From assembly GCA_965214605.1 (NCBI GenBank), contig OZ243961.1, positions 3,104,001 to 3,168,000 on the forward strand: DNA of 64,000 nt. The letters run 5' to 3'. The number at the start of each line of letters is the position of its first letter. Position 1 is the first letter of the stretch. Below the pieces are notes generated by a model. It was not told the origin of the DNA. It saw only the letters and a program-made list of their open reading frames with translations, and ran no database searches. Of this stretch, positions 14,436-47,371 are shown one piece after another. Source of the stretch: an uncultured Candidatus Binatia bacterium. GTDB taxonomy: Bacteria > Desulfobacterota > Binatia > Bin18. Made by a program: the position numbers and the translations under genes.

Positions 14436-14454
14436 CAGAGACAAAGGGCGTGTT

Positions 14455-15679: not shown

Positions 15680-15718
15680 GCTTAGGATAGATAGGAGGAA
15701 TGCGTAGCAGAAGCGAGC

Positions 15719-17461: not shown

Positions 17462-17506
17462 AACTACCCCCCTTCTTTCGGTGTTTGTGACATGCCTCAG
17501 TTCTGA

Positions 17507-17535
17507 GGCTTACTCGCCTGAGGGCTGAATGTCAA
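17507..17535 (-). promoter_or_regulatory. Putative sigma70 promoter
   Basis: TTGACA-17 nt-TAAGCC upstream of ATG 17461. Confidence 0.55.
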
Positions 17536-17549
17536 GCTTTGCAGTCCAC

Positions 17550-17588
17550 AAAAAAAGGGCGGTAGAACATATGTTCCGCCGCCCTTTT
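17550..17588 (-). terminator. Rho-independent terminator (possibly bidirectional)
   Basis: AAAAGGGCGG..GAACAT/ATGTTC..CCGCCCTTTT hairpin flanked by A and T runs between the two deacylases. Confidence 0.75.
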
Positions 17589-17628
17589 GGAGAGTGCACG
17601 CTCAGGACTGAGGGTTGAGCGTTGTAGC

Positions 17629-19371: not shown

Positions 19372-19418
19372 AGCTACCCTCCTTGCGCTAAAGATTGTTT
19401 TAAGAGTGTCTTACTTCC

Positions 19419-19447
19419 GGCATACGCACAGTTGTCTCAGATGTCAA
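19419..19447 (-). promoter_or_regulatory. Putative sigma70 promoter
   Basis: TTGACA-17 nt-TATGCC upstream of ATG 19371, same layout as the paralogue's promoter. Confidence 0.55.
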
Positions 19448-19556
19448 GCCGTTTCACTAAAAAATTTTTCCATAAAAACGTTTAGCTGTCTCCGGCATCT
19501 TCTCCCCGTAGCAAGAGTGCTGTAAGGAAATAGACTGAATGAGTGTTCACTTTATC

Positions 19557-20582: not shown

Positions 20583-20720
20583 ATCCTTACACCTCCCTCC
20601 GGCGCCCCAGCCTAGCGGCTTCTTGACAAACCGCAAGGGCTCGGCAGACAATGCAGACTTGAGGGGCTGAGATCTCTATGAGAGTGATACTTTTGCACAC
20701 ATTGTTAAGGAGGCAAACGC

Positions 20721-23891: not shown

Positions 23892-25014
23892 GCTTCGTCT
23901 GTTTAAATGTTTCGAGGTATTAAAACTGCCTCTCGCACCACTGACCTTGCTCTCCGGCCTCAATTCATCCGGCAAATCCTCCGTGCTGCAGGCGCTCGTG
24001 CTCCTGCACCAGACAATGCGCGAGCACGAGTGGGCGACACGCCTGGCGCTGAACGGGGCGGACGTACGCCTAGGGACGGTCGTGGACGTGGTGAACGAAG
24101 TCCATGGGCGGACCGGATTTGAGGCCGGCGTGACTGATGACACGTCCGCTTGCCAGTGGGTGTTCAAGGGAGACCGACGTGAGATGTCCATGCAGGTGAC
24201 TCAGGTGTCGCTCAATGGTCGCAAAACGGAGAACCCGCAGGTATTGCGACACCTGCTCCCGCCAAACGCTAATGGAAGCGTCGTCCCTCTGGCCGACCGA
24301 ATCCGCGGGCTTACCTATATCACCGCCGAGCGGGTAGGCCCGCAGGAGACATATCCGCTCGAAGATCCGTACGATGCCGACTTGGTTGGAGCTAGAGGCG
24401 AACACACGGTCAGTGTGTTGCATTGGAGACGGGACGAATCCGTCCCGTCTCTGCTTGCCCTGTCGGGCACGCCGCCCACGCTGCTGCGGCAAGTTGAAGC
24501 CCGCATGCAGACGCTGTTTCCAGGCTGCGGTCTGGATTTGCAGCAGGTGGCACAGACAAACGCCGTGACGCTCGGGTTACGCACCTCCGACGCCACCGGC
24601 TTCCACCGTCCGATCCATACCGGCTTCGGTTTGACCCAAATTCTGCCCATCCTCGTCGCCGCATTGTCGGGTCCGGCCGGCCGGCTTCTGTTGATCGAGA
24701 ATCCCGAAGTCCATCTACACCCCGCGGGTCAAGCATCGCTAGGCGGTTTTCTGGCGGACGTTGCAGGGGCCGGCATTCAGGTCATCGTGGAGACGCACAG
24801 CGACCATGTCCTCAACGGCGTCCGCCGTGCGGTCAAGGAAAACCGCCTGAGGCCGGACCACGTTGCCATCCACTTTTTCAAGCCACACTCGGACGAGGGC
24901 GCCCAAGTGCACAGCCCGATGCTGGATGCCGAGGGAAATATCGACGAGTGGCCAGAAGGGTTTTTCGATCAGTTCGACAAAGACATGAACTATTTCGCAG
25001 GATGGGACGGCTGA
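23875..25014 (+). CDS. nsnB: ABC-type ATPase with C-terminal DUF3696, Menshen NsnB-like
   Basis: GLNSSGKSS, IENPEVHLHP, ETHSDH, WPEGFFDQ; GTG start with GGGAGG RBS inside nsnA. Confidence 0.82.
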   Translation: MLTRLELRLFKCFEVLKLPLAPLTLLSGLNSSGKSSVLQALVLLHQTMREHEWATRLALNGADVRLGTVVDVVNEVHGRTGFEAGVTDDTSACQWVFKGDRREMSMQVTQVSLNGRKTENPQVLRHLLPPNANGSVVPLADRIRGLTYITAERVGPQETYPLEDPYDADLVGARGEHTVSVLHWRRDESVPSLLALSGTPPTLLRQVEARMQTLFPGCGLDLQQVAQTNAVTLGLRTSDATGFHRPIHTGFGLTQILPILVAALSGPAGRLLLIENPEVHLHPAGQASLGGFLADVAGAGIQVIVETHSDHVLNGVRRAVKENRLRPDHVAIHFFKPHSDEGAQVHSPMLDAEGNIDEWPEGFFDQFDKDMNYFAGWDG

Positions 25015-25976
25015 CTGTGGAGTTACTCTTCAACGAACTCTCGCTCCACGGACAGTTCCCTGACGTGACGACGTTCAAAGCTTCCGTTGGACGTGTGATG
25101 CGCATACGCAAGGTTATGCGGAGGTTTGGGCGAGATCTCTATTGTCGTCGGAACGTCCCCTCCTGTCAGGTGACGTCGGACAAGACCATGCAGCAGGTGA
25201 TCGGAGCCTTCGATCCGAACAGCAAGCGTGCGTTACTGGGATGGCTGACGGGGCGCGGCCCTTTTTGGGAAGACGAGCGGGAACATAGCGGGGAGGAATG
25301 GTTTGAATACAACGGTGAAATCGTGACCGACAGCGCGCTGGGAGAGGCCGCGTATAAATATTTTTGCGGCCTCTCCCAAGGCGTTGTGAGCATGGCCCCG
25401 TCAGCCTGGTTGTCTTCGCCTTTGTTGGTCAAATGGGTCCAAAACAGAGAAACGTCGAGTGCGACTATTCCGAACTACTGGGATGTCGACACGCTGCGCG
25501 CTGTCCTTGACGCGGCGCCCGCCCCGATCAGGTCTTGGACGGAGTTAGAGACGATGGCGCGTGAGCGCTGTCCGGACCTGATGTTTGCGCAGGACAGTTT
25601 TAAGCCGTTGGCCGGGCATCCGTTCCACGAGGGCACTGCCAAACGCCTGCTAGACCGCTTCTCTCGCCTCCACGATCTAAAGAACTGTTTTGACGAGCGC
25701 GGGGAGCGCACCTCTGAAGGGCACCGATTATACAAAGCGCATTTCACTGGTGACGGAGCGCATTTCTCAGATTCGTCGGATACCGAGAAGAGGACCTTTC
25801 GGACGGAACTGACATTCCCACATCCCCAGGTGCCCGGCACGTCTTTGTTCTGCACCTGGCACGGCAAGGTGGTCACAAGGTCACGGTTGCAGCTTCGGGT
25901 GCATTTCTCCTGGCCGGTCCGCAGAGATGACCCCCTGTACGTCGTCTATGTTGGACCGAAAATCACCAGGCGATAA
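25002..25976 (+). CDS. nsnC: Putative effector, Menshen NsnC-like (C-terminal RelE-like region)
   Basis: Coupled to nsnB end; C-terminus WHGK...RVHFSW...YVVYVGPK; start 25002 or 25017. Confidence 0.65.
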   Translation: MGRLTVELLFNELSLHGQFPDVTTFKASVGRVMRIRKVMRRFGRDLYCRRNVPSCQVTSDKTMQQVIGAFDPNSKRALLGWLTGRGPFWEDEREHSGEEWFEYNGEIVTDSALGEAAYKYFCGLSQGVVSMAPSAWLSSPLLVKWVQNRETSSATIPNYWDVDTLRAVLDAAPAPIRSWTELETMARERCPDLMFAQDSFKPLAGHPFHEGTAKRLLDRFSRLHDLKNCFDERGERTSEGHRLYKAHFTGDGAHFSDSSDTEKRTFRTELTFPHPQVPGTSLFCTWHGKVVTRSRLQLRVHFSWPVRRDDPLYVVYVGPKITRR

Positions 25977-28639: not shown

Positions 28640-30214
28640 TTACAGTCGCCTCCAACTGTTGATTTGCTCTTTTAGCTGCTCTAGCAACTCCGCGATGTTC
28701 TCCTCAGGGCGCTTTTCTGTCTCGCAGCGGCCGACGATCCTGCCGAGGTGTGAAATGGGTTGCTCTACCCTGGCAGCAAATGCTTCTAGGTTGGCCTTGG
28801 AGGCAGGCTGCTGGGTTATCGTCGTCCCTTCCATCATCTGTGCGCTCTCCCGCATCTGCTTTGCCATGTCCATGGCGGATAACTCTAGCAATGTGGCGTA
28901 GTCCTGCGGGTGCTGTTGCAAAGTCCTCCATATCCAATCTTCTGGTGGTGCCGTTCCGGGAAGGAACAAGGGTTGTAAGCGGTGTCCGTATTCTTCGGCG
29001 ACGCTCTTAATGGAAGCCTCCATAGGGCGCGAGTCGCCGTCCAAGACGACGACGAAGTCCTTCAGCTTTCCGAACTTGCCGAGCGTCCTGATATGAGACG
29101 GAAACTCGTCCCGCCTCGTGTTGCTGCCGATGACGAAATGATCAGGACGAAGATCCAGTTGGGATTGCAGCACATCCAGCACCCCAAGTATCACTCCTTC
29201 CGTGATCGCGTCCTCGCATAGGATTGAGAGTTGATCACGGGACTGTCCGTAGAGAGATTTCTGGAAAATATCCCGGTAAGCCGGCATTAGCCGGACTTCT
29301 CCGGTTTGCTCGTCGCGGTCTAGGAATATCCGCCCCTCGGGAGGCACACTGTCCAAAATCACCGGACTGTGCGAGGCAACGACGATTTGCAGTCTTTGTC
29401 GCAGCGCAGTCCGCTGCAATTCCAGCATCAGTTGCTGCTGCGTGTATGGATGGAGCCCGGTATCAATATCGTCGATAAGGATCAGGGCGTTCTCGAGACG
29501 AGCAATGTCTTTGGATATCCGCAGGATCGTGCGTTCTCCAGAGGACATGTGAAATTCAGAATAGCGAACGGCTCCGCTCCCCTCGACTTCTGCGAACAGC
29601 AGGTTGCGGGATTGCCCGCTGATGACCGCCAGCCTGCGGTAGCGATGACGTAAGATGCGGTGGGCGAAGATAAGCAAGTCGGAAGTTAGAGGTTCGATCA
29701 AAACGGGTTTTCGCGCGAGTTGGAGAATCCCCCGGATCTCGGACGGATTGGTAAGATTGGCAAGAGCGCGAAGGTAGAGATGTCGCTGCGGTTGGTAACC
29801 CGCCCTCCGGCCCATGAAGCCCTTGTGCCACTTCCACGACTTGCCCCGTTTCCAGACCATGGACAGACGATCGTCCTCATGCAGATAGTAGAACTCCAGT
29901 TCCGTTTGCTCGGTCGGGTCCGACATTTCCCCGGTAGATTGGTGCCTAAAATTAGGAAAAAAGCTGCTGGGAGTAAACTCCTGCGACGCGCGGCTCGGGG
30001 CACGGTAGGCGCAGGCACAGGCACAGAGCACCGTGGACTTACCGCATCCGTTAGGACCGGCAAGGACACAGACGGGATAATTAAAGGGAACCCGCAGATT
30101 CCGGATACCCCGTAGATTTCTGAGATGCACTTCCAGAAGGGCGGAGCGGCGTTGCCTATTGCTCGCCCGTAGCGCGTCCCATGTCTCCTGCAGCTGCCTA
30201 GCAATCAACGACAT
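28640..30214 (-). CDS. ABC-type ATPase fused to TOPRIM-like domain (OLD-like)
   Basis: GPNGCGKST, MSSGE, ILIDDIDTGLHP, ASHS; C-terminal ILCED...VLDGD; AAGGAGG RBS. Confidence 0.8.
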   Translation of the reverse strand: MSLIARQLQETWDALRASNRQRRSALLEVHLRNLRGIRNLRVPFNYPVCVLAGPNGCGKSTVLCACACAYRAPSRASQEFTPSSFFPNFRHQSTGEMSDPTEQTELEFYYLHEDDRLSMVWKRGKSWKWHKGFMGRRAGYQPQRHLYLRALANLTNPSEIRGILQLARKPVLIEPLTSDLLIFAHRILRHRYRRLAVISGQSRNLLFAEVEGSGAVRYSEFHMSSGERTILRISKDIARLENALILIDDIDTGLHPYTQQQLMLELQRTALRQRLQIVVASHSPVILDSVPPEGRIFLDRDEQTGEVRLMPAYRDIFQKSLYGQSRDQLSILCEDAITEGVILGVLDVLQSQLDLRPDHFVIGSNTRRDEFPSHIRTLGKFGKLKDFVVVLDGDSRPMEASIKSVAEEYGHRLQPLFLPGTAPPEDWIWRTLQQHPQDYATLLELSAMDMAKQMRESAQMMEGTTITQQPASKANLEAFAARVEQPISHLGRIVGRCETEKRPEENIAELLEQLKEQINSWRRL

Positions 30215-30376
30215 AGCTGGCGGCCTCCTTTCAGTGAGGGAATCCGGACCGAAAGGATCCAGCCCCTGTGGTACCATTGACAGTATATCTCCCTCTGCTC
30301 CTCTAGGGGGACGGCGTGGGCATACGACCTCCTGTCCCGCTCCGCACCAGGAGTTGCACGATGGGGCTGCGCGCGG

Positions 30377-30703
30377 CTAGGCTGCCAGCTTGGGCGAATC
30401 TCCTCCGCAGGCTGCGCAGCACGTCAACGTTGGTCGTGGTCTCCCCCACTTCGTCACCGCCTTGATGATGCCGAACAATCGCCGTCGTTCCTCATCCTCT
30501 CCTCCTGAGGTGGGGGACACGTCCGCCTGTAGAGAAGGGGTGTCCCCCATTTGGACAAAGAGCAGGGCGCGGGAGTGTCGCGTCCACCAGGGATGGAGCG
30601 TATTTGGGTGGCCGTGCCGGGTGGACTTTTCTCGCGCCGCGGCGGCGTTGACGGCCTTCGGCATTGGTGCCACTTCGATGAACTCCCTATGCAGTGCAAG
30701 CAT
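30377..30703 (-). pseudogene. Remnant of DUF1156 DNA methyltransferase (N-terminus only)
   Basis: FIEVA...VNAAAAREKSTRHGHPNTLHPWW, the DUF1156 signature; truncated to about 100 codons. Confidence 0.8.
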
Positions 30704-30721
30704 CGGTGGGCCTCAACCAAG

Positions 30722-31189
30722 CTACTCCAAATCAAAAGCGTCTTTCAGCTTCTGGCTGCAACGAATCAATCTGATTTGTTTCTTCTCGCCACGGAGGACG
30801 ATTTTTTTCTCACGAAGGGTTTCCCTCTCTATTGGCGAGATCCCTTTCCCATGAGCAAGAACTGGGACGAATTGAAAAGATCCACTGTTCGGTAGCCAAG
30901 CCTCTGCGGTTTTGGCTCCTCCCTGAAGTTGGGCAACGACGTCCGAGGCTCTGACTCTCCCACTTTTCAACTCAACGAGAGCTACCCAGGCTTTCGTATT
31001 CTTCTCGCCGACGAACACATAGTCACAGCGCTTCTGGTCGGGCGGAATTTGAAGCATGTCGCAATCAAGATCGACCAGGACAGACTTGATTGAAGAAGGG
31101 ACGGACAGGGAACAGCCGTCCTTCTTGCAGGAATGGGAACGGCAACAGGTGGGAACCTTGTTGGAGACAGCGGCGACGAGGCCCCTCAT
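30722..31189 (-). CDS. Small PD-(D/E)xK-like nuclease
   Basis: KRCDYVF...VALVELKSG...QL motif; ATGA overlap with the upstream ATPase stop. Confidence 0.7.
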   Translation of the reverse strand: MRGLVAAVSNKVPTCCRSHSCKKDGCSLSVPSSIKSVLVDLDCDMLQIPPDQKRCDYVFVGEKNTKAWVALVELKSGRVRASDVVAQLQGGAKTAEAWLPNSGSFQFVPVLAHGKGISPIERETLREKKIVLRGEKKQIRLIRCSQKLKDAFDLE

Positions 31190-32694
31190 TGGCCGATGCT
31201 TTCCTGCCTGCGGTTAAAAATGACGGCGCTCTCGTTATACAGCGTCTCGCTCACGCTCTCATAATCGGTGGGATACAGGCCGGTTTCGGGATCGAACAGC
31301 ACCTGCTTCACGATCGAACCTTTGGGGCGTTGAGTGGACTTGAACAGCCATGCCCCGACCTCGTCCGTACTGAGTGCAACGTCGGCGTCCGCAAGCCCGG
31401 TCTGCCGCTCCTTCGGCAACGTGGAAAGTTGGACGAGATTGCCAATCTGTTCGAGAAACCATTCGCTGTGCGTCGTCATAACAACGCGAACGCCTTTGCG
31501 AACCAGCCGCGCGAGTTCACGGGCAAAGGCAGCCTGCATGGCAGGATGCAGGTGGGCTTCTGGTTCCTCGATGATGAGCACATCACCGGGCCGGATGATA
31601 TGCCGTAGGTAGAGCACGACGGGCGCCAACTCCGAAACCATGGACGACGCCCGCATCAGCGGGAGATCGTCCTGCCATCCCTCGGGGCGGTAGGCAAAGG
31701 TCGGGTAGTTCATTTCGGAGGGCTCCAGCAGAATCTTGCCCTTGAGAATGTTGTGCTCCAATCCCGCCTCGAATTTGCTCGACGATTTTTGGTGAAACCT
31801 GCGAATTCCTCTCCTCGCACTTATCCCAATCAATTGATTCAGAAAGTCGGCCAATACGCCGGACAACATCGGAACGTCGCGGGAAGGACGGAGTCCGGCC
31901 ATTGCCGCACTCTGAACCAATGCACTCACGACAACCTGATGGCTGTGCATGACGCCGGTACGATCGGCCGGTAGGTAATAGGCGCTTTTTTGGGAGAGTG
32001 GTTGAAGCAGAGCGTTGAACAGGTCTCGTGACAATCTGAACAGGTGTCTGAGATCGTTCGCGTCAACTTTCGCGTCTTCAATTATTTTGAATAGCAAAGG
32101 ATCTTTTCTGTCCTTGGGGGGAATCTGCGGGGTAAGGGGAATGGTCTCGGGAATCTCGCCGGATAGCTGAGTTCCTTGTGGACCGAATTTCAGCTGGTAC
32201 TGAACCGTCCCTTCATTCTGGGGCACGTGCAGATCTATGCGTGAGACGCGGTGAGAGCCGGGCCGGCGCACCAATTTATCAAGACGATCAATACCGAAAC
32301 ATCGGCCAATTTCTTGCTCTAAAGCCTGGTCAAGTCCTTCGGCTTTTTCAAGCGCTTTTCGGATGTGTGTCTCCAAATTCTCGGGCAATGTAGGAGAGGG
32401 CCCTTCTGTCGAGAACCAGTCCGTAAGCCAGTCCGTAAGACTGTTCCGAAGAGAGGGGCTGAGACGACTAGCGCTGAACATAGGCGCTGCTAGAGACCAT
32501 TGTCGAAGCAGATCCTCGAAACACCGGTGCAAAGCGTAGATAAGGATCGCTAGATAGGACTTCCCCGTATTGCTCGGACCGACGAACACGGTAAGGGGGC
32601 GCAGGTCCACGCTGGCTTTTACGATCGGTCCGAAATTCGCCACGTCGAGGCGATAGCCGCCCGTGATCTTTGCTTTACCCGGAGGGGCGCTCAT
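31186..32694 (-). CDS. AAA_15/AAA_21-type ABC ATPase
   Basis: GPSNTGKSY, ASSMVSELAP, IIEEPEAHLHP, TTHS; GGAGG RBS before ATG 32694. Confidence 0.85.
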   Translation of the reverse strand: MSAPPGKAKITGGYRLDVANFGPIVKASVDLRPLTVFVGPSNTGKSYLAILIYALHRCFEDLLRQWSLAAPMFSASRLSPSLRNSLTDWLTDWFSTEGPSPTLPENLETHIRKALEKAEGLDQALEQEIGRCFGIDRLDKLVRRPGSHRVSRIDLHVPQNEGTVQYQLKFGPQGTQLSGEIPETIPLTPQIPPKDRKDPLLFKIIEDAKVDANDLRHLFRLSRDLFNALLQPLSQKSAYYLPADRTGVMHSHQVVVSALVQSAAMAGLRPSRDVPMLSGVLADFLNQLIGISARRGIRRFHQKSSSKFEAGLEHNILKGKILLEPSEMNYPTFAYRPEGWQDDLPLMRASSMVSELAPVVLYLRHIIRPGDVLIIEEPEAHLHPAMQAAFARELARLVRKGVRVVMTTHSEWFLEQIGNLVQLSTLPKERQTGLADADVALSTDEVGAWLFKSTQRPKGSIVKQVLFDPETGLYPTDYESVSETLYNESAVIFNRRQESIGQ

Positions 32695-32884
32695 AGACCC
32701 CCTCCATATCAATCCTCTGCCGCTGCTGCTAGGCCTTCCCCTAGGAGTGTGGGTGGGATGCTCGCCCCGCTGACGAGGTGTTCGGCCCGGTTGAGTTCCT
32801 CCCTCACCATAGTGCGTCGTCACCGTGCGATACCGGTTCTCCGCACTCTCGGAGACCACCTACCGCATTCAGGTCCGACGTGTC

Positions 32885-33062
32885 CGGGTACTGTGGAACG
32901 GTAGCCCCCGAGCCTATGATCGACCGTATCTTGACTCTGGGCGAAGCTGGCGCGGATTATGATGTGTTGCGACTTGAACGGTACACGGACGCCGAAACCT
33001 TCCGGGCCGAGAGCGAGCGCTTTGCCACTCAGGTGATCCTCGAAGTCGGCTGGCCGCCGTAG
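32885..33062 (+). pseudogene. C-terminal fragment of an LLM oxidoreductase
   Basis: CGT..PEPMIDRI..LGEAGADY...ESERFATQVI resembles an LLM C-terminus; no 5' part. Confidence 0.45.
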
Positions 33063-33109
33063 GGAGAGGTTTATGCTGTTCGGTTGGCTGCGGCCAACCG
33101 ACGGCCGGG

Positions 33110-33520
33110 AAAGTTGATGCCGTCCCATCTAGGTCGAGGAGACGGCGCATTTCCCCTGGTTCGTTGATGGTCCACACATACATTTCGGCGTCGGATCGGG
33201 GTGCCGCGGTGAGCGTCGCCTCTGTGACTAGCGGCAGACCCTCAATAGTCGAGTGGGATCTGGAGTGCCTGGCCGGGCGGGCGATAATCCGAAAGCCGAC
33301 TAGGCGCCTGAAGCCGGCCGTCTCCTGATAGCCGAAGCTTGTTGCAATTAGGAGGCACGGAGCCGGCACCGCGTCGTGTTCGGGGGCAGGGAGCACGTCG
33401 TTGGCTTTGCCGCAGGCGTTGACTACAGCCAATACCGCTCCGTCTAAGGGGCTTGTCGCCCCCGGCGCTCACCAGACCGGTATCATCTCCGAGGCTTCTC
33501 TGATCATCTTGCCGAACTGC
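33110..33520 (-). pseudogene. Glycerophosphodiester phosphodiesterase remnant
   Basis: LVTEATLTAA....MYVWTINEPGEMRRLLDL matches a GDPD C-terminus; rest disrupted. Confidence 0.6.
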
Positions 33521-33566
33521 CATGCAAGGGAGCAAACGCCTGCTGCTGCAGCACCGGACACAATGC

Positions 33567-34685
33567 CTAGCGCCGCAGCCCGGCCTGGCGCATTAAGGGC
33601 AATACCTTTTCTCCGAAGTATTTCATCTCTTCGTTATAGTCGAGCCAGCTCAGAATCATGCCCTCCAGGCCAATCTGGGACAGTTTGCAGAGTTCGTCGA
33701 CCACCTGTTCGGGCGTACCCACTAGTGGATAGCCGCCCCAGCCGGCGATAAACCGCTCGGCAAACTCGGTCAGGTGCTGCTCGGAGAAGGACTCACTCTC
33801 AATGCCCAGCAGGCCTAAAATCGTGCGGGCCGCCTCCCAGTCGCCTTTTTCAACAATGGAACGATACTTCTGCTGGGCTTCTTTTTGGGTATCGCAGCAT
33901 ACCACCAAGCCGTAGGTCATGACCCCAATCTCGCGCTGATACTGACGGGCTAGCTGTTTGATCTCGGTGGTAATGGCTCTGCCGTTTTCAAGCGTATCGA
34001 CCGCCATAAAATTGAAATCAACCTCGCGGGCGGCAAAGTCCTTACCGGCTGGGGAAAAGCCGGCGTTGATCAGCGTGGGGTAAGGCTTTTGGACGGGTTT
34101 GGGCAACAGATAGCCGTCTTTGATCTGAAAAAATTCCCCCTGATGATCAAAGCCCTGTTCGGTCCACATCCGTTTGATGACCTGAATCCACTCCGAGGCA
34201 TAGCGGTAGCGCTCGGCGTGCTCCATCTGTTTGGCGCCAAACATTTCCATTTCGGGTGTAAACCAGCCGCACACAATGTTGAGCCCCCAGCGACCGGTGG
34301 AGATATGGTCAATCGTTGCGCCCTGTTTAGCGGCCACAACGGGGTGGATGGTCGGCGCATGAGAAGTCGAAAACAACATGATGCGTTCGGTCTGGGCCGC
34401 CAGGGCGGCCGCCCAAGTATAGGTCTCCATGCAGGTCCCGTTAAAGTCGGTTGAGCCGCCAAACCCCCGCCACCGGCCGACCGGCACCAAGAGTTCAAAG
34501 CCGAGCCGGTCGGCCTGTTGGGCGATCGCTAAGGTGTGCTCGTAGGTTGCTTCATACGTCGTTTCCGCGTGCGTAATGGTGCAGCCGTTGCTACAGTTTG
34601 AGCCAAACACCCCTAGCTTCATCTTGTTGTCGTTGAAAACCGGGACAGTGGCACGGCGGTATTCCATCAGCTCGCTGGCATGCAT
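33567..34685 (-). CDS. LLM flavin-dependent monooxygenase (RutA/SfnG/SsuD-like)
   Basis: GRWRGFGG, TIDHISTGRWGLNIVCGW, NAGFSPAG, LVGTPEQV; AGGAGG RBS. Confidence 0.9.
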   Translation of the reverse strand: MHASELMEYRRATVPVFNDNKMKLGVFGSNCSNGCTITHAETTYEATYEHTLAIAQQADRLGFELLVPVGRWRGFGGSTDFNGTCMETYTWAAALAAQTERIMLFSTSHAPTIHPVVAAKQGATIDHISTGRWGLNIVCGWFTPEMEMFGAKQMEHAERYRYASEWIQVIKRMWTEQGFDHQGEFFQIKDGYLLPKPVQKPYPTLINAGFSPAGKDFAAREVDFNFMAVDTLENGRAITTEIKQLARQYQREIGVMTYGLVVCCDTQKEAQQKYRSIVEKGDWEAARTILGLLGIESESFSEQHLTEFAERFIAGWGGYPLVGTPEQVVDELCKLSQIGLEGMILSWLDYNEEMKYFGEKVLPLMRQAGLRR

Positions 34686-34718
34686 AGCGGTCTTTCCTCC
34701 TGAGGACATGGCCGAGGG

Positions 34719-35315
34719 TCAAACGGCTGAGGGCGGCACGTCCCGGCGCAAAAACGCAACAACCTGGTCCGTCAGCTCATCCGCCCTGGCATCTAGCTCG
34801 GCCTGGCTCAGATTGGCGATCGGATGGGGAGTGACGACAAACGCATAGTCTGGTGCCCCCCAGTTTTTGGCCATGGCTTGGCCAGTGGCGATAAACGGCT
34901 GGGTGATAATGGCCACGGCCGGAATACCGATTTTTTCCAGTTTCATACCGTCGAGCACACTGCTCGAACTGCACGAGCCTCAATCGCCGACGCCGGACAG
35001 CACGAGATCGGTCTGTTGCCGAAAGCGGGCCAGAGCATCCTCACTCACGCTGTGGCCGGAGGACTTTTTGCGGGCCAGATGCACCATGGTCGTGCCGTAG
35101 CGCTCGTGTAAACGGTGGGCAATTTTCAGCAGCAGGACGTCGGAGTTAAACTTTGTGTTTTCGACCAGGCCGAGCCGCAGCCCGTCCAGCGAGCGTGGAC
35201 GCGGGGCGTAGGAAAAAGAGGTCGGTGATATCTTCCCTGGAGAGGGGGCCTCGCCAATATCTTTTCCGGCCGGGTGTTGGGGCGAGACGGTTGGGTCAAA
35301 GACGGTGCGAGGCAT
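34719..35315 (-). CDS. UGSC-family selenoprotein (in-frame UGA at 34980-34982 read as Sec), 198 aa
   Basis: ORFs 34980-35336 and 34719-34958 are one frame: VLSGVGD-TGA-GSCSSSVLDGMKLEKIGIPAV; SECIS-like hairpin follows; AGGAGG RBS at 35315. Confidence 0.9.
34950..34969 (-). promoter_or_regulatory. Bacterial SECIS-like hairpin
   Basis: G(U bulge)UCGAGCA-GUG-UGCUCGAC; the 7-bp stem starts 12 nt after the UGA and the loop starts with G. Confidence 0.75.
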
Positions 35316-35332
35316 GGCGGTCCTCCTATGGT

Positions 35333-36376
35333 TCATTCAATCGGGACGGTCACACTGCGGGTCCATTTATTCCCCCAGCCCGGCAGGCAGGCCGACCAGC
35401 TGCCGGCCCGGCCACCCGCACACACGATGAGCAGGTCTTCGGGCTGGCGCATGACATACCGCCAGGTGGTTTCGTCGTCCGGCGTGATCTGTCCGGGCAG
35501 ACGCGCCGCGCGTTTAAAATCGGCCACCGTCCGGCGGGCGTGTTGAACCAGGAATTCTTGGACGCGGTGTTTGCTCCAGCCGCTCTTGGCCAGCACCTCG
35601 GTGTGTTCTCCGGCCAAAACAAGCAGGGTCTGGTTAAAACCGTACACGTTCGGCGTGGCCAGGTTGCACACGGCATCGGCAAATTCGAGCAACAGGGGTT
35701 CTGGACGGCTGGCGAGTTGGTTGTAGACACCGCTCAGGCTATTGGAGGCGTAGAGCGTTACGGTGCTGTCGTGGGGCTGAAAGCCGCGCTCGACATGGAG
35801 CGGTTGCCACGGCGTATTGGCCTCGTCCTCGGCAAAACACAGGGTGTATTTCCCTGGGGTGCCAAGCGTGGCACGGTCCAACAGGCCGGGTCTCGTATTG
35901 AGGACGTTCATCATCACCAGTCTGAGGGTGCGTCCAATCGTGGCATTGGCACGATGACCGGGGCCGAACAGATTGTTGCCCGAGTTGATGCCGAGGGCCG
36001 GACCGAGAGGACCGTTGACAATAATGGCCAGGGCCGAGCCGCCAGTGCTCGTCGCCGGATTATGATAGCTGAAGTCCGGGTGACACAGGGCTTTCACCGC
36101 GGCCAAGACGAGCGGAAAGTAGTCGGGCAAACAGCCAGCCATAACTGCGTTAATGGCGACCTTTTCCGCGGGAATTCGGGCGTTGCGTTCGGGAATCGTG
36201 CCGATGATATCGACCGGGCCAAGCTTTCCGGCGTCGAGCATGGCCCGGACCGAGTCTTCGGTTGGCGGGACAAGGGGCAGACCGTCGCTCCAGCCCTGCC
36301 GATAGTAAAACTCAATCCAGGCCGCGGCCTCGGCTGGGTCAGAGCGCGGCGGATTGTTCGCAGTGCTCACAGGCAT
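35333..36376 (-). CDS. Conserved hypothetical protein, partner of UGSC selenoprotein
   Basis: WSDGLPLVPPT, EKVAINAVMAGC, RANATIGR motifs; directly upstream of the UGSC gene. Confidence 0.8.
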   Translation of the reverse strand: MPVSTANNPPRSDPAEAAAWIEFYYRQGWSDGLPLVPPTEDSVRAMLDAGKLGPVDIIGTIPERNARIPAEKVAINAVMAGCLPDYFPLVLAAVKALCHPDFSYHNPATSTGGSALAIIVNGPLGPALGINSGNNLFGPGHRANATIGRTLRLVMMNVLNTRPGLLDRATLGTPGKYTLCFAEDEANTPWQPLHVERGFQPHDSTVTLYASNSLSGVYNQLASRPEPLLLEFADAVCNLATPNVYGFNQTLLVLAGEHTEVLAKSGWSKHRVQEFLVQHARRTVADFKRAARLPGQITPDDETTWRYVMRQPEDLLIVCAGGRAGSWSACLPGWGNKWTRSVTVPIE

Positions 36377-36403
36377 GAGCTTCCCTTGTGGGTGAACGGG
36401 CCA

Positions 36404-37165
36404 CTACTGGGCGATCAAACCGCCGTCAACCGCCATTGGCAGACCGGTCACAAATGAGGCGGCATCGGAACACAACCACGCCACCGCTTCGGCAATTTCT
36501 TCGGGCTGACCGAGGCGCCCGACCGGCTCGATCGTAGCCACCCCCTCTTCCATGGCGGGGCTTTTTTCAAAGGCGCGCTTCACCATCGGCGTTTCAATCA
36601 CGCCCGGACACACGGCATTGACCCGAATCCCGGCTTTGGCGTATTCCAGGGCGGCCGTTTTCGTCAGGCCATTCACCCCGTGTTTGCTCGCCACATAAGC
36701 GGAAAGACCCTGAAAGCCAACCAGACCGGCGACCGAAGCGGTATTCACAATAGCCCCGCCGCCGTTTTGCAGCATGACCGGGATTTCGTACTTCATGCAC
36801 AGCCACACTCCGGTCAGATCAATGGCCACAACCCGGTCAAAATCCTCTTCCGTATAGTCAACCGTTGAACACACCGGCCCTTCAATACCGGCATTATTAA
36901 ACGCGCAGTCGAGCCGGCCATAGGTTTCGACCGTCTGATTGACCATGGCTTCCACTTCGGACGCCTGTGAGACATCGGCCTTGATAAAAATCGCCTCGCC
37001 ACCGGCCTCCTTGATCAGTCTGACCGTCTCCTGGCCACCCTCAACAACAACATCGGCAACCGCTAGCTTCGCATTTTCTCGGGCCATTGTCAGACAGGTG
37101 GCCCGACCAATGCCCGAGCCTCCTCCGGTGACTAATGCAACTTTTCCATCCAAACGACCAACCAT
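36404..37165 (-). CDS. SDR family oxidoreductase
   Basis: TGGGSGIG, NNAG, YVASK catalytic YxxxK. Confidence 0.95.
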   Translation of the reverse strand: MVGRLDGKVALVTGGGSGIGRATCLTMARENAKLAVADVVVEGGQETVRLIKEAGGEAIFIKADVSQASEVEAMVNQTVETYGRLDCAFNNAGIEGPVCSTVDYTEEDFDRVVAIDLTGVWLCMKYEIPVMLQNGGGAIVNTASVAGLVGFQGLSAYVASKHGVNGLTKTAALEYAKAGIRVNAVCPGVIETPMVKRAFEKSPAMEEGVATIEPVGRLGQPEEIAEAVAWLCSDAASFVTGLPMAVDGGLIAQ

Positions 37166-37212
37166 AAGTGATACTCCTTTCTCTCCATCGTCGCTCTGTG
37201 TTAAGGGGGTTC

Positions 37213-37905
37213 CTACCTGTCCGTCTCCAACAGGGCCACCTGCAAGGCCGCGACCTCCTGTCGCAAGGCTCTCACCTCACGCAACAGCGTCTCAGACTGA
37301 GGATCGGCGTCGCGTTGCAGATAGCCAGACTCAAGAATACGGATAAATTCTTCGGCAACGGTTTCTGGCGTCCACTCGCCACCCGGTCGGTACCAGCGGT
37401 GCATCCAGTTCCACATGCCGATCAGGGCATAGGTAAAACGTTTGGGGTGGACCGGGATCAACACGCCGGTGCTCACCCCCTCTTCGATGACTTTCTCAAT
37501 AACCTGGCCAAAGGCCCGGTTGGCCCGCGTGACCGAGCGTCCCATCTCGGCTGGGAGATTGAAAATTTCCGAGAAAAAGACCTGGGCCAGAGGCATATGG
37601 GAGGCAAGGTAGTGAACATGGTGACGGGTGATGCGGCGCAGTTTCTCTTTGACCGGCAAGTCCTCGGCCGCAATACGCTCAAGCGCCGTTTGGGTCGAAG
37701 AAATGACTTGATTATAGATCTGGCGCAAGAGTTCTTCTTTGCTCGGAAAATAGGAATAAAACGCGGCTCGGGAGATACCGGCGGCAACCGCAATATCGTC
37801 TAGCGTGGTGGCGTGATAGCCGCGCTGGCTGAACATATCGGTCGCCACCCTGAGGATTTCTCCCTCGACCGCAGCGCGTTTACGAGATCGCTTGCCCGTC
37901 AGCAT
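37213..37905 (-). CDS. TetR/AcrR transcriptional regulator (KstR2-like C-terminal domain)
   Basis: HTH TTLDDIAVAAGISRAAFYSYFPSKEELL; GMWNWMHRWYRP. Confidence 0.9.
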   Translation of the reverse strand: MLTGKRSRKRAAVEGEILRVATDMFSQRGYHATTLDDIAVAAGISRAAFYSYFPSKEELLRQIYNQVISSTQTALERIAAEDLPVKEKLRRITRHHVHYLASHMPLAQVFFSEIFNLPAEMGRSVTRANRAFGQVIEKVIEEGVSTGVLIPVHPKRFTYALIGMWNWMHRWYRPGGEWTPETVAEEFIRILESGYLQRDADPQSETLLREVRALRQEVAALQVALLETDR

Positions 37906-37956
37906 GTCGCGTCCTTAGTAGCCTTTCTGGTACGGTCCAGGCAAGCCCTCTCTTGC

Positions 37957-37999
37957 TTGACACCGGTGGGGTGCTAGGCATATACACGCCAGAGTATAT
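37957..37999 (+). promoter_or_regulatory. Putative promoter with overlapping palindromic operator
   Basis: TTGACA-18 nt-TATACA; ATATAC-N8-GTATAT (37980-37999) overlaps the -10 box, between divergent TetR and LLM. Confidence 0.5.
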
Positions 38000-38065
38000 A
38001 ATGTGGACTGCGTAATATGTAGAGGAGAGAAGACGCACCGCGCAGGCTATTTGAAGGAGGAGACC

Positions 38066-39202
38066 ATGTCGTTACATGTTGGCTATGCCCCGGTTTTTCA
38101 GAATCCCGGCAACGCGCTGTCGGACGCCGAAGTATATCAAGAGGAGCTGCGTTTGGCCGAGCTGGCCGAGCCGCTGGGTTTCGACTCCGTGTGGTCGATT
38201 GAGCATCATTTTACCGACTATACCATGTGCCCGGACGCGGTCCAGTTTCTGTCCTACATGGCTGGCAAGACTAAGCATATGAAGTTAGGCACGATGGTCA
38301 TCGTCCTGCCGTGGCACGATCCGATCCGGGTTGCTGAACAAATCTCGCTGCTTGATCATCTGTCGGACGGTCGGATGATTTTAGGCTTTGGCCGAGGCTT
38401 GGCTCGGGTTGAATACGAGGGCTTCCGGATCGATCAAAACGAGGGCCGCAACCGTTTTGTTGAATACGCCGAGCTAGTTATTAACGGCCTGAAAAACGGC
38501 TATGTGGAGGGCGGCTTGGAGACTCAGCAACCGCGCCGTGATATCCGGCCGTATCCCAAATATTCCTTTGAAGGCCGCACCTATGCCGCGGCGGTGTCGC
38601 CGGAGTCGATGCCGATTATGGCCAAGCTAGGGATTGGCCTGCTGGTTATTCCGCAGAAACCGTGGGAGGTCGTGCAGCAGGATTTTGAGGTCTACCACAA
38701 GGTTTGGAAGGAAGAGCACGGGGCTGATTCCACCCCGCCCCAGCCACTCTGTGGGGGCTTCTTTTATGTGGACGAAGATGAAAAGCGGGCCGAGGAGAAC
38801 GCTTACAAGTGGATTGGTGCCTACTACCATACCGCCATGCGCCACTATGAAATGACCGGCCAGCATTTCGGAACGCATAAGAGCTACGAGTTCTACAGCA
38901 ACGTTGGCAAATATATCAGCAAACACGGCATGGACGGTGCGGCCAGAGACTTTGTCAAGCTGATGCCGTGGGGGACGCCGGACCAGGTGCTGCGCAAAAT
39001 TGAAAATATGCGCACCATGATCGATATGAACGGCATCATGTGTAACATGAGCTATGCGGGGATGCCGTACGCTGAGGTGGAGCGCAGCCTGAAGTGCTTT
39101 GCAAAACACGTCCTGCCCGAACTCAAGAAGTGGGACACTACTCCGTTGGCCGCGCCTCAGCCGCTGACCAACATGCCGGCGCCTGCTTCCAAGGCTGCCT
39201 AA
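38066..39202 (+). CDS. LLM-class flavin-dependent oxidoreductase
   Basis: GFDSVWSIEHHF, RVAEQISLLDHLSDGR, WGTPDQV; AAGGAGG RBS. Confidence 0.92.
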   Translation: MSLHVGYAPVFQNPGNALSDAEVYQEELRLAELAEPLGFDSVWSIEHHFTDYTMCPDAVQFLSYMAGKTKHMKLGTMVIVLPWHDPIRVAEQISLLDHLSDGRMILGFGRGLARVEYEGFRIDQNEGRNRFVEYAELVINGLKNGYVEGGLETQQPRRDIRPYPKYSFEGRTYAAAVSPESMPIMAKLGIGLLVIPQKPWEVVQQDFEVYHKVWKEEHGADSTPPQPLCGGFFYVDEDEKRAEENAYKWIGAYYHTAMRHYEMTGQHFGTHKSYEFYSNVGKYISKHGMDGAARDFVKLMPWGTPDQVLRKIENMRTMIDMNGIMCNMSYAGMPYAEVERSLKCFAKHVLPELKKWDTTPLAAPQPLTNMPAPASKAA

Positions 39203-39231
39203 GACGTGTCCTCATTCCCGGGAATGTCTGT

Positions 39232-39264
39232 GGCGGGGCGGCCAAGCGGTCGCCCCGCCTTGTT
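39232..39264 (+). terminator. Rho-independent terminator
   Basis: GGCGGGGCG.CC / GG.CGCCCCGCC stem followed by a T-rich tract. Confidence 0.65.
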
Positions 39265-39363
39265 GTCTGGCTTTCGTCTTTTTTTGCTATCAGCTACACT
39301 CACCCAGGCGGTCAAAGGAGCAGCCCGGCCGGCTCTCACCGCTTAGTCGAGGAGGATTGAGCA

Positions 39364-40554
39364 ATGGCCGATCTTGAAACCTTTCGTGTCAACACTCGAC
39401 AATGGCTCAACGACCATGCCCCGGCATCCCTTATCGGGACGGCGTCAAACGAGCTGGAGGGCAACTGGGGGGGACGCAAGGCGCGGTATAGGAATCCAGA
39501 CGCCAAGGTGTGGCTTGATCGCATGGCCGAAAAGGGCTGGACCGCACCCGAATGGCCGGCCCAGTACGGCGGTGGCGGGCTGTCAAAGGCAGAGGCCAAG
39601 ATCGTGCGCGAGGAAATGGCGTCACTAAAGCTACCGGTGCCGTTGATCGGATTTGGCCTGACCATGATCGGTCCGACCCTGCTGGAGTATGGGACTGAAG
39701 AACAAAAACACGAACACCTGCCCAAGATCGTACGTGGTGAAATTCGCTGGTGTCAGGGCTATTCAGAGCCCGGCTCGGGCAGCGATCTGGCCTCGCTCCA
39801 AACCCGAGCCGTGCGAGACGGCGACTTCTATGTGATCAACGGGCAGAAGATCTGGACCTCCTATGCCAATTTCGCCGACTGGATGTTTCTGCTGGTCAGG
39901 ACCGACCCGGACGCCCCCAAGCACCGGGGCATCACCTTCATCCTGATGGACATGGAAACTCCTGGGGTTGAAACCCGACCGATTAAGCTGATTAGTGGAT
40001 CTTCGCCGTTCTGCGAGACCTTCCTGACCGACGTCAGAGTGCCGGTCGACAATGTGATCGGCCATGTGAACGAGGGCTGGAGCGTGGCCAAGGCGCTCCT
40101 GAACCACGAACGTTCGATGATCGCCACCGCTTTTGGCGGCGGGGGGGGCAAACGCCGTGGGATGCGGGACTGGGCCAAAAAATATCTCGAGTTTGACGGG
40201 GAACGGATCGCCGATGCAGCCCTGCGGGATCGGATCGCCCGTTTTGAGATGGATAATGCGGCTTTTCGGCTGACCTCCGACCGGAGCCGTGACGCGGCTA
40301 AGGCGGGCCGGCCGCCGGGCCCGGAGAGCTCAATGTTTAAGATCTACGGCACCGAACTCAACCAACGGCGGCAGGAACTGCTGCTGTCAATTGCCGGTCC
40401 GCAGGCCCTGGGCTGGGAAGGCCCGGGGTTTGAAGCACGTGAGTTAAGCCTGACCCGCGACTGGCTGCGTTCACGGGGCAACACGATTGAAGGCGGGACA
40501 AGCGAGATTCAACTCAATGTGATCGCCAAGCGGGTGCTGGGACTGCCGGATTAG
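39364..40554 (+). CDS. Acyl-CoA dehydrogenase, catalytic-type subunit
   Basis: WCQGYSEPGSGSDL, NGQKIWTS, LNHER, TIEGGTSEIQ. Confidence 0.93.
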   Translation: MADLETFRVNTRQWLNDHAPASLIGTASNELEGNWGGRKARYRNPDAKVWLDRMAEKGWTAPEWPAQYGGGGLSKAEAKIVREEMASLKLPVPLIGFGLTMIGPTLLEYGTEEQKHEHLPKIVRGEIRWCQGYSEPGSGSDLASLQTRAVRDGDFYVINGQKIWTSYANFADWMFLLVRTDPDAPKHRGITFILMDMETPGVETRPIKLISGSSPFCETFLTDVRVPVDNVIGHVNEGWSVAKALLNHERSMIATAFGGGGGKRRGMRDWAKKYLEFDGERIADAALRDRIARFEMDNAAFRLTSDRSRDAAKAGRPPGPESSMFKIYGTELNQRRQELLLSIAGPQALGWEGPGFEARELSLTRDWLRSRGNTIEGGTSEIQLNVIAKRVLGLPD

Positions 40555-40557
40555 GAG

Positions 40558-41715
40558 ATGGGACAAGTGACTCAGCAGCTCGTTCTCACCGAAGATCAAG
40601 AACTCCTGGCCCAAACCGCCTTCGACTATGTGCGGGCCAACTCGCCCGTCTCACGCGTGCGGGAATTACGCGACTCCGGAGACCCGGTCGGCTTTTCTCG
40701 TTCGCTGTGGCAAGACATGGCCCAACTGGGCTGGGTCGGTATTCTGATTCCCGAGGAGTATGGCGGGGCCGGGATGGGCATGGCCGATTTTGCCGTTGTC
40801 ATAGAAGCGCTGGGCCGCAACCTCGCCCCTGAACCGTTTCTCTCGACTGTGCTGCTGGCCGGACAGTTGCTGTCGATCGCCGGCAGCTCTGACCAAAAAC
40901 AGGCCTGGCTGCCGGGTATCGCTGCGGGCGAAAAGATTCTCACTGTGGCCTACCAAGAGGCCAACAGCCGCTATAACCTGAATCGGGTCAGCACCACAGC
41001 CAAGGCCGAAGGCGGGGTGTGGCGGATTGAAGGCCAAAAGGTTCAGGTCCTAGACGCCTTTGCCGCGGACGCACTGATTGTCTCGGCCCTAACATCTGGG
41101 AGGAACACCGCTCCTGACGGCATCAGTCTGTTTCTGATTCCCAAGGACGCGCCCGGTGTCGGCATCATACCCCAGTCTCGGGTTGACTGTCGGCCCGTTG
41201 CTCTGGTAGGATTGAGAGACGTAACGGTTGGGATGGAGAGTATGGTTGGTGCTGTTGGGGGGGGAGGGCCGTTCCTTTCTCAGGTCGTTGATCAGGCGAC
41301 TGTTGGGTTATGCGCGGAAATGCTCGGCGGGATGACCCAGATCTTTGAGACCACCCTGGATTATTTGAAAACGCGGACCCAATTTGGGGTGCGGATTGGC
41401 AGCTTTCAGGCACTCAAGCACCGGGCGGCCCGGCTGTTCATGGATCTTGAGCTGGCTCGCTCCGCGGTCATGGCCGCGGCCCGGGCTGTTGACAGCGGTG
41501 ATGCTGAGGCGGAAGCGTTTATCTCGCTGGCCAAGGCGCGCTGCTCCGATACGTTTGTGTTGGCTGCCAACGAAGGCGTTCAGATGCACGGTGGTATCGG
41601 GATGACGGATGAGCATGATGCGGGGTTGTATATCAAACGTGCCCGGGTGGCCGAGATGACCTTTGGGGATGCGGCCTGGCACCGTGAGCGCTGGGCGCGG
41701 CTGCGGGAGTATTAG
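40558..41715 (+). CDS. Acyl-CoA dehydrogenase, second subunit
   Basis: RTQFGVRIGSFQALKH, QMHGGIGMT; 3-bp gap after the first ACAD. Confidence 0.92.
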   Translation: MGQVTQQLVLTEDQELLAQTAFDYVRANSPVSRVRELRDSGDPVGFSRSLWQDMAQLGWVGILIPEEYGGAGMGMADFAVVIEALGRNLAPEPFLSTVLLAGQLLSIAGSSDQKQAWLPGIAAGEKILTVAYQEANSRYNLNRVSTTAKAEGGVWRIEGQKVQVLDAFAADALIVSALTSGRNTAPDGISLFLIPKDAPGVGIIPQSRVDCRPVALVGLRDVTVGMESMVGAVGGGGPFLSQVVDQATVGLCAEMLGGMTQIFETTLDYLKTRTQFGVRIGSFQALKHRAARLFMDLELARSAVMAAARAVDSGDAEAEAFISLAKARCSDTFVLAANEGVQMHGGIGMTDEHDAGLYIKRARVAEMTFGDAAWHRERWARLREY

Positions 41716-45958: not shown

Positions 45959-47371
45959 TTAGTGGTGTACCGGGCACTGTCCCGCGGCCGCGCCGTGAGG
46001 CACTGCTGCCTCACGGGGAGTCTTCTCTCCCTTTGGCACTCCGTAGCGCCGCTGATAGCTCACCCGGCACGGGCTGGCCGGCCACTTGGTGGCCGCGCCG
46101 GCTACGGGCTGGGGATCAGGATTAAGCAGGCTGAACTCATAGTGCTGGAACAAGAGAGAGAGCGCCACTTTCATCTCTAGATAGGCAAAGTTGACGCCGG
46201 CGCAGCGATGAACCCCACCGCCGAATCCGATCAGACTGTGCGGGGTGCGGGACTCGTCCCGGTCTGGAGAGAACCGCTCCGGGACATAGCGATCAGGCTC
46301 AGGAAAGACATGGGGCATGCGGTGAGAAATTGACGGGGCGGCAAACACCCGGCTGCCCTGTGGCACCCGAAATCCCTCAATCTCCAGATCCTCGGCTGCG
46401 GTGCGCATCAGAATATAGGCGACCGGGTGGAGCCGTTCGGTCTCCTTGACAGCCCAGTCGATGCGCGACAGCTGGCGCACATCGGCCATCGTCAGATCCT
46501 GGCGGTCGCCGATCAGTTCGTCCTGTTCATCAATCACAGTGTGCAGATAATCCGGATGCTGCAACAGGTCGATCAGCGCCCAGCTGATATGACCGGCAGT
46601 CGTTTCGTGACCGGCCCACACCAGGAGCAGAATCAGATTGATAACCATTTCATCATCAATCGGCCGGCCGTCAGAGAATCGGGCCTCGACCAGAGTCTGA
46701 AGAAAATCAGCCTCCGCCGGTGGCTGCCGGCGACGCCTCTGGATCAGCTCGCCCAGCACCCGGTGCAGCTTTTTCTTCGCCTTCTGGCTGCGGATCAGCT
46801 TGGGTAGGGGCAGCCACAGCGGCAGAACCGGCTCCATACCGCCCGAGAAATGTCGGAAGTCGGTGAAGAACTCGCCGCCTAGTCGACCCCGGAACTCTGG
46901 GCCTAAGAACGCATGGGCGGCGATATTCATCACGAGCGGGCCGAGGGTTGGAATCAGATCAAACGAGCCGCTCTCACCGAGCTGCTCAATGAGGTCACAC
47001 GTCTCCTGGGCCATCGTTGACACATATTGGTTCATCTGCCGGCCCTGGAAGCGGGGCAGGACAATGGCCCGCTGCTCCAGATATTCTTCAAACTCGGCAA
47101 AAAAGTAGAACCGTTCGTGGAACATCTTGATGAAGAACGGATAGCCCTCCCGGATGGACAGCAGCTTGTCGGTCTCGGTAAAAAAGAAGCGGTTGTTCTC
47201 GGGGCCGAGGAGAACGACCGCGGGCTTGGGGCCGAGCCGGAGAGAGAACACCGAGCCGTGCTCCTGATAGCCGCGTTCGAGGAGTGGAATCGGATCTCTG
47301 AGAAATTGGAACGCGTGTCCAATAACCGGGGTCGAACCGCTGACTGTTGGGGGTAACGAAGGTGTCGCCAT
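45959..47371 (-). CDS. Cytochrome P450, CYP51-like
   Basis: AGHETT I-helix, KETERLHP, PERF, FGGGVHRCAG heme Cys; overall resemblance to bacterial CYP51. Confidence 0.9.
   Translation of the reverse strand: MATPSLPPTVSGSTPVIGHAFQFLRDPIPLLERGYQEHGSVFSLRLGPKPAVVLLGPENNRFFFTETDKLLSIREGYPFFIKMFHERFYFFAEFEEYLEQRAIVLPRFQGRQMNQYVSTMAQETCDLIEQLGESGSFDLIPTLGPLVMNIAAHAFLGPEFRGRLGGEFFTDFRHFSGGMEPVLPLWLPLPKLIRSQKAKKKLHRVLGELIQRRRRQPPAEADFLQTLVEARFSDGRPIDDEMVINLILLLVWAGHETTAGHISWALIDLLQHPDYLHTVIDEQDELIGDRQDLTMADVRQLSRIDWAVKETERLHPVAYILMRTAAEDLEIEGFRVPQGSRVFAAPSISHRMPHVFPEPDRYVPERFSPDRDESRTPHSLIGFGGGVHRCAGVNFAYLEMKVALSLLFQHYEFSLLNPDPQPVAGAATKWPASPCRVSYQRRYGVPKGEKTPREAAVPHGAAAGQCPVHH

Follow-up and report, generated by a model that had tools for sequence, protein, structure and literature searches.

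A UGSC-family selenoprotein and its conserved partner gene in an uncultured Candidatus Binatia bacterium

Introduction

When a single in-frame TGA separates two predicted open reading frames (ORFs), does it encode selenocysteine (Sec), and with which of its neighbours would the resulting protein work? The question is raised by a locus on contig OZ243961.1 of an uncultured Candidatus Binatia bacterium (GenBank assembly GCA_965214605.1), from which a stretch of 64,000 nucleotides (contig positions 3,104,001 to 3,168,000; here termed the window) was analyzed. Two ORFs divided by a TGA within a U-G-S-C motif lie here in a minus-strand array with genes for a TetR-family regulator, a short-chain dehydrogenase (SDR), a 347-aa protein, and a flavin monooxygenase. 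A sequence-only reading of the window had joined the two ORFs into one selenoprotein, compared it to GrdB and PrdB of glycine and D-proline reductases, and proposed that it forms, with the 347-aa protein, a two-subunit enzyme acting with the SDR and a RutA/SfnG-like monooxygenase in an undescribed system, a catabolic pathway that might cleave C-N or C-S bonds.

Novelty in that sense has to be withdrawn: the UGSC-containing (seleno)protein family was catalogued in 2007-2008 (PMC1976440, PMC2398784), and a fusion of UGSC to a region called ‘Unknown_1’ was reported in the 2008 supplement (PMC2398784). That UGSC proteins lack an assigned function agrees with our literature search, which was limited in subscription papers and bioRxiv supplements and gave no functional study; within the same limits, no name for the partner beyond ‘Unknown_1’ was found. 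Here, we report that the window encodes a real selenoprotein of this known, functionally orphan family, with an obligate-looking partner first glimpsed in 2008, and that the conserved unit comprises these two genes and not five.

Results

With the TGA at 34980..34982 (-) read as Sec, the two ORFs become one 198-aa frame (35315-34722, -) followed by a stop TGA at 34719-34721, so that the whole gene occupies 34719..35315 (-). The frame holds this single internal TGA in the context GVGD-U-GSCSSSSVLD (U112-G-S-C115). Its ATG at 35315 lies behind AGGAGG, and the start at 35336 given in the ORF track would overlap the stop of the partner gene. The protein scores above the cut-offs of both NF041046, ‘UGSC family (seleno)protein’ (148.7 vs 125 bits), and PF24696 (181.4 vs 25 bits). 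In the genome that contains the window, termed G000 (4.37 Mb, 99.99% complete), all seven UGSC paralogues have TGA at this site, as do 75 of 78 related loci in which UGSC was matched; the other three comprise a TGC, a frameshifted copy, and a gene cut by a contig end. The columns corresponding to residues 112 and 115 are invariant (C112 and C115) across 71 aligned UGSC sequences, and Cys forms occur among the search matches. One contig from a public sequencing run is identical over window positions 33000-38002 (0 differences) and a second shows 6 differences and 1 gap, although these contigs share a study with the best holder and are not a fully independent confirmation. Because the TGA recurs in paralogues and related loci and the public-run contigs agree, it is neither a chance event nor an assembly error. 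The Sec machinery is complete, with selA, selB, selC, and selD all present in G000: a tRNA-Sec (72 bits, TCA anticodon) adjoins a selA-like ORF, identified by sequence and position without a profile, and selB (382 bits) adjoins selD (388 bits), which itself contains a TGA.

A hairpin within the coding region (34951..34967, -) fits the bacterial Sec insertion sequence (SECIS) consensus and model as quoted in PMC13188914. Its 6-bp stem begins 13 nt past the UGA and its AGUGU loop lies 18 nt past it. In an alignment of TGA-bearing sequences (TGC and frameshifted copies excluded), from which the stem itself had also been picked, the stem pairs in 97.7% of cells across 74 distinct sequences; 30 cells are altered on both sides, and such changes affect three of the six stem pairs. 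None of 500 shuffles matched the paired fraction or the covariation score, and slid controls pair at 15-51%. By folding energy alone, the hairpin stands out less clearly and is at most moderately unusual (z -2.59 for 66 nt, z -0.53 for 38 nt), and an Rfam scan of window positions 32000-40000 gave no match. Ser codons within the stem and loop are nearly frozen, whereas those upstream are variable. The window protein belongs to a UGSCSSSSVLD subfamily that lacks the later Cys and His, and these Cys-to-Ser and His-to-Leu changes lie on opposite sides of one base pair (UGC/CAC to AGC/CUC), from which we conclude that RNA structure shapes the protein motif. In the shared motif, Sec with SECIS, and the existence of Cys homologues, no family-level difference from the described UGSC family is apparent. 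Profile scores, the conserved TGA, and the covarying SECIS together confirm, at the level of sequence, that the two listed ORFs are one UGSC-family gene with a TGA predicted to encode Sec. Annotation cuts UGSC genes at the UGA, and therefore both halves and the partner remain ‘hypothetical’.

The partner gene, corresponding to ‘Unknown_1’, lies directly upstream at 35333..36376 (-) and encodes 347 aa with WSDGLP and AINAVMAGC motifs. G000 holds exactly seven UGSC and seven partner genes, always in the order partner-UGSC and with no spare copy of either. Among 80 loci selected by their partner gene, 78 contain UGSC; one of the others stops at a contig edge, and one, with a 73%-identical partner and no UGSC within 7 kb (L075:7001-8011), is a real exception. 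When loci were instead selected by NF041046 across the phylum, a partner was present within ~1.5 kb in 30 of 30 (29 places, three of the loci from G000). The linkage noticed by the sequence-only reading is hence both tight and general. The two genes are also co-duplicated and fused in both orders: in 33 of 150 partner representatives, UGSC sequence forms part of the partner chain, in 9 as a whole N-terminal UGSC, in 20 as the post-UGA half, and in 4 as a C-terminal UGSC cut at the UGA. For 52 loci, the UGSC tree mirrors that of the partner (Mantel r 0.896, reached in 0 of 2000 permutations), with the seven paralogous pairs on separate branches.

The partner family is large, with at least 7062 matches among 8000 scored and 5137 representatives, and occurs in 30 of 31 related genomes in up to 11 copies. 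It shares with ‘Unknown_1’ of the reported fusion (PMC2398784, Fig. S1A) the segment A-[VI]-N-[AG]-V-M-A-G-C-x-P-x-Y-x-P; it differs in being mostly a separate adjacent gene that is multiplied per genome. Seven representatives (P0157, P0158, P0161, P0164, P0165, P0180, P0223) are tandem duplications of the partner domain of 616-741 aa, and at two loci (L125:7001-8452 and L198) both genes of the pair are frameshifted together. In distant genomes, fused UGSC-partner genes with leaders that appear hydrophobic or twin-arginine-like by eye (L217:8614-9984, L217:11383-11781, L219:7965-9662, L220:6618-7019) suggest exported forms; one such cluster includes MauE/DoxX and rhodanese genes.

Redox domains recur around the pair. 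In 27 long partner representatives scanned (of 54), the partner domain is fused to thioredoxin/peroxiredoxin-like domains of AhpC/TSA type in five and to a ferredoxin-thioredoxin reductase (FTR) catalytic chain in two; additional fusions bring in three extra domains that bear CxxC and were assigned to no family, as well as one CPTC domain. In 7 of 80 loci, the pair is followed by MsrB, and GST, DsbA-like, and FTR genes lie near three of the six other G000 paralogues. One FTR catalytic chain gene (L015:5287-5763; G000:C1:2059283-2059762) is ~1.1 kb from another pair, and the same domain is partner-fused in P0240 and P0268.

The partner matches no Pfam or NCBIfam family. A Pfam scan of 100 homologues gave weak matches only (best E 0.005), the ESM Atlas returned unnamed clusters and, when UGSC was skipped, no named match, and PDB sequence searches with the partner and UGSC, singly and as profiles, did not improve on E 0.08. 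The polar positions that hardly vary are D31, C82, R142, N144, R149, N157, E183, and W190; across 163 domains, conservation reaches 99% for D31 and E183, 96% for C82, 88% for H258, 87% for C180, and 81% for H194. The predicted partner model is confident (pLDDT 94.8, pTM 0.93) and has no Foldseek match at E<=0.001. Its best fold match (Z 5.9-6.3) is chorismate-mutase-like and limited to residues ~211-334, and weak longer alignments involve cyclic amide hydrolases and class I fumarase. Because the fold search hardly reaches the N-terminal half, we make no claim of a new fold.

For UGSC, the predicted model (pLDDT 90.7) has five strands alternating strictly with five helices and places U112-C115 at the start of helix 113-128. 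The fold matches listed are generic Rossmann, flavodoxin, or receiver-like domains (Z 8-10). As far as the listed matches go, such a predicted alternating α/β architecture, set against thioredoxin topology, seems not to fit the thioredoxin-like fold guessed for UGSC in 2008 (PMC2398784).

How far does the proposed likeness to GrdB and PrdB extend? A UGSC profile built from 71 proteins aligned to four GrdB sequences with a probability of 66% (E 5.6e-5, 84 columns) and to 25 PrdB-like sequences with 41% (E 2.8e-4, 78 columns), and the likeness is confined to the stretch that runs from D-x-V...UxxC...E..GIP onwards. PMC13188914 gives UxxCxxC as the GrdB motif; five of the seven G000 paralogues keep it as U-x-x-C-x-x-C, and in whole subfamilies Ser, Gly, or Trp stands in place of the third Cys. 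UGSC is not a member of the PrdB family: the window protein scores 16.6 bits against TIGR04483 (cut-off 300), and a PF07355 search of G000 returned two other genes and no UGSC copy. The partner is ruled out as a PrdA or GrdE homologue, with no match to four such sequences (0.1%), and a PF09338 gene was found in three of three control genomes and not in G000. No solved GrdB or PrdB-like chain turned up in the PDB by sequence. The GrdB/PrdB-like layout thus survives as a short, real likeness around UxxC...E..GIP.V, without family membership or a related second subunit. Shared with component B of glycine/sarcosine/betaine reductase (GrdB+GrdE) and with D-proline reductase (PrdB+PrdA) are a two-part design with a Sec subunit and the aligned UxxC(xxC)...E..GIP; unlike those Stickland reductases, the UGSC cluster contains no grdA, grdC, or prdC, and its partner is unrelated to GrdE/PrdA. 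As a side observation, stand-alone PrdB-like selenoproteins are common in the class. G000 carries two short PrdB-like genes (G000:C1:1557449-1557703 and C1:475661-476029), of which the one read (L164) has U-P-V-C, and no PrdA/GrdE match.

The remaining genes of the array are the SDR (253 aa, 36404..37165, -), the TetR-family regulator (TetR_N + TetR_C_24, 230 aa, 37213..37905, -), and the luciferase-like flavin monooxygenase (372 aa from a ribosome-binding site (RBS)-supported ATG at 34685; 33567..34685, -). With RBS-backed starts for UGSC (35315) and the monooxygenase (34685), the five genes are separated by 47, 27, 17, and 33 bp. The pair is kept in seven of seven congeners at 84-92% identity, and the other three genes are genus-level neighbours whose order shifts even within the genus. 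In five congeners (G001-G005), a family III CoA-transferase gene lies directly or nearly directly upstream of the partner, between it and the SDR, and has no orthologue in G000 (best 35%). G006 and G007 (97% and 99% complete; pair at 91% identity) have no monooxygenase match at E<=1e-60 and no TetR orthologue, only a 40-42% TetR paralogue. Four congeners show a UGSC-monooxygenase gap of ~130 bp to 2.1 kb, compared with 33 bp in the window, and in G014 the partner and monooxygenase orthologues are ~780 kb apart. Orthologues at ~80% or more were found in few of the 80 loci (monooxygenase 2, SDR 2, TetR 1), all within the closest three, which are probably in part the congeners themselves; both 7-kb flanks are present in 45 loci, one of which has a monooxygenase orthologue. 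Farther away in the phylum, the pair is often fused, and its neighbours include TRAP/ABC/TTT transporters, CoA-transferases, a glycyl-radical enzyme, and molybdopterin enzymes; the scan took in 44 neighbours out of 119 ORFs from 12 regions, and none of the 44 was a luciferase-like monooxygenase. Since the array order varies among congeners and rarely recurs in the 80 loci, the five-gene array would most simply be a product of deletions in one lineage.

RutA and SfnG are the best solved relatives of the monooxygenase (E 1e-48 and 4e-45), yet it falls below both equivalog cut-offs (RutA 195 vs 498.3; SfnG 231.6 vs 382.95) and, unlike the core genes, is not tied to UGSC-partner outside the genus. 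Its frame is in register with that of UGSC, and a fusion through readthrough of the second TGA (34719-34721) was considered and rejected because UGSC ends with TAA, or with TGA, and a spacer of ~130-420 bp in three congeners, because the monooxygenase has its own RBS, and because the RNA past this TGA folds no better than shuffles (z 0.85). We judge the in-register position to be chance. KstR2 is among the solved relatives of the window TetR, a relationship hinting at acyl-CoA sensing. A second TetR_C_24 regulator stands directly behind another partner-UGSC pair (L013:8366-9055; G000:C1:623365-624057), and TetR_C_24 paralogues also lie near pairs in G002, G006, and G007.

A promoter and terminator scan of the locus gave nothing decisive, the best promoter-like site being directed at the divergent gene, and a search for RNA data sets containing the locus listed none. 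That gene, luciferase-like, and a PimC/PimD-like acyl-CoA dehydrogenase pair (below cut-offs) occupy 38066-41715 (+) and keep their synteny with the cluster in most congeners. Several AAA-ATPase-like and DUF262-like ORFs (DUF262 by eye) that resemble defence or mobile cargo lie a short way downstream of the cluster, at 22791-25976 and 28640-32859. At 11565-21851 stands a row of paralogues that were identified by eye as amidohydrolase and N-acyl-amino-acid deacylase-like genes; in congeners, this block stands directly after the monooxygenase or UGSC. A cytochrome P450 at 45959-47371 (-) has CYP51-like solved relatives (E 1e-75) and a much nearer solved P450, 9wat (E 6e-165).

Discussion

What might a selenoprotein and an unnamed partner do together? 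We lean towards a two-subunit, thiol-recycled selenol reductase that acts on small organic molecules; C-N or C-S cleavage, as put forward by the sequence-only reading, would be a guess. In such an enzyme, the partner would bind and activate a small organic substrate via D31, N144, R149, and E183, with C82, C180, and H258; the selenolate of U112 would attack the substrate, C115 would resolve the adduct to form a selenenylsulfide, and a thioredoxin-type dithiol would re-reduce it. This last step is proposed because of the AhpC/TSA and FTR-chain fusions, the CxxC and CPTC extra domains, and the redox neighbours. The chemistry is modelled by analogy on proline reductase, in which Sec serves as the attacking nucleophile (PMC11229817), and contact between the two chains is suggested by fusion and linkage. 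The assembly would work much as component B does in the Stickland reductases, except that its partner would be of a non-homologous, non-pyruvoyl kind. Between the seven deep-branching pairs of a genome, the substrate would vary, and the SDR, TetR, and monooxygenase would be neighbours in a rearranging catabolic island that may act on related compounds without being required parts.

Several observations weigh against this reductase. The GrdB/PrdB match spans those 78-84 columns only and is expressed in pairwise E-values, and the window copy of UGSC has UxxC alone, the third Cys being absent. Few partner representatives show an electron-donor fusion (with a Pfam call, 7 of 150), no thioredoxin-system gene lies within the cluster of the window, and the agreement of the two trees is predicted by linkage alone. 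The conserved Cys, His, Asp, and Glu residues of the partner would suit a metal site equally well, and a metal-centre enzyme or cofactor carrier, in which UxxC(xxC) and partner residues hold a metal or Fe-S centre in a lyase, isomerase, or assembly role with no net thiol-redox turnover, draws on the high conservation of C82, C180, D31, E183, H258, and H194. The partner also aligns weakly, over 178-188 residues, with the alpha subunit of Fe-S class I fumarase (Z 4.6-4.8, rmsd 5.4), and second place among the UGSC fold matches goes to 8s7v_H, a chain of the methyl-CoM reductase activation complex (Z 9.9, rmsd 4.0, 136 aligned); both point the same way. However, these Z values are in a range that the tool calls common, generic Rossmann-like rows rank level with 8s7v, the third Cys is swapped in entire subfamilies, and the dithiol-donor fusions indicate redox cycling; we consider a metal centre unlikely.

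A general thiol-redox repair or detoxification module, reducing sulfoxides, peroxides, persulfides, or electrophiles with no catabolic link, would account for neighbours that vary at almost every locus, with MsrB, GST, DsbA-like, rhodanese, or MauE/DoxX beside some copies, and thiol oxidoreductases make up most aquatic selenoproteins (PMC2398784). Yet a housekeeping reductase has no obvious need for a highly conserved 350-aa partner or for 7-11 ancient paralogous pairs per genome, and the neighbours are chiefly small-molecule catabolic genes and transporters, which makes this explanation rather improbable. Counting against a purely local role of the other three genes are features of the array itself that favour a dedicated five-gene pathway, in which the pair acts with the SDR and flavin monooxygenase of the window: the single strand with gaps of 17-47 bp, linkage of the SDR to the pair in six of seven congeners and of the monooxygenase in four of seven, a luciferase-like gene within 5 kb of four of the seven paralogous pairs (17.8% of random positions, P 0.02), and a different luciferase-like gene that recurs in 24 of 80 loci, mostly in one clade. 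The enrichment is not significant within 0.5 or 2 kb, however, and G000 has 96 luciferase-like and 57 SDR-like loci. Together with the unmatched monooxygenase in G006 and G007, its distant location in G014, the presence of an orthologue at 80% or more in only two of 80 loci, the CoA-transferase that intervenes in five congeners, and the wider UGSC-monooxygenase gaps in four, this renders such a pathway, as put forward by the sequence-only reading, very improbable; the neighbourhood survey places that gene order at the level of a genus within which it is altered.

These results remove a misleading lead, in that the adjacent monooxygenase is no guide to the substrate, and reduce the system to a minimal unit of UGSC and one partner. 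Now that residues for catalysis and donors of electrons can be put forward as candidates, the question of function becomes testable in cultured hosts; Hyphomonas neptunium, Sulfitobacter, and Sphingomonas wittichii are among those listed in the 2008 papers. Extending the two-subunit selenol reductase to the whole family, we tentatively entertain, at somewhat less than even odds, that UGSC and its partner constitute an undescribed superfamily of selenium-dependent small-molecule enzymes. It would combine a GrdB-like selenol module with a subunit of ~350 residues, one that lacks a clear relative of solved structure and needs no pyruvoyl group, and in each genome would have split into 7-11 copies with substrates of their own, among them fused forms that carry signal-peptide-like leaders. 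If true, this would give a function to one of the most abundant aquatic selenoproteins.

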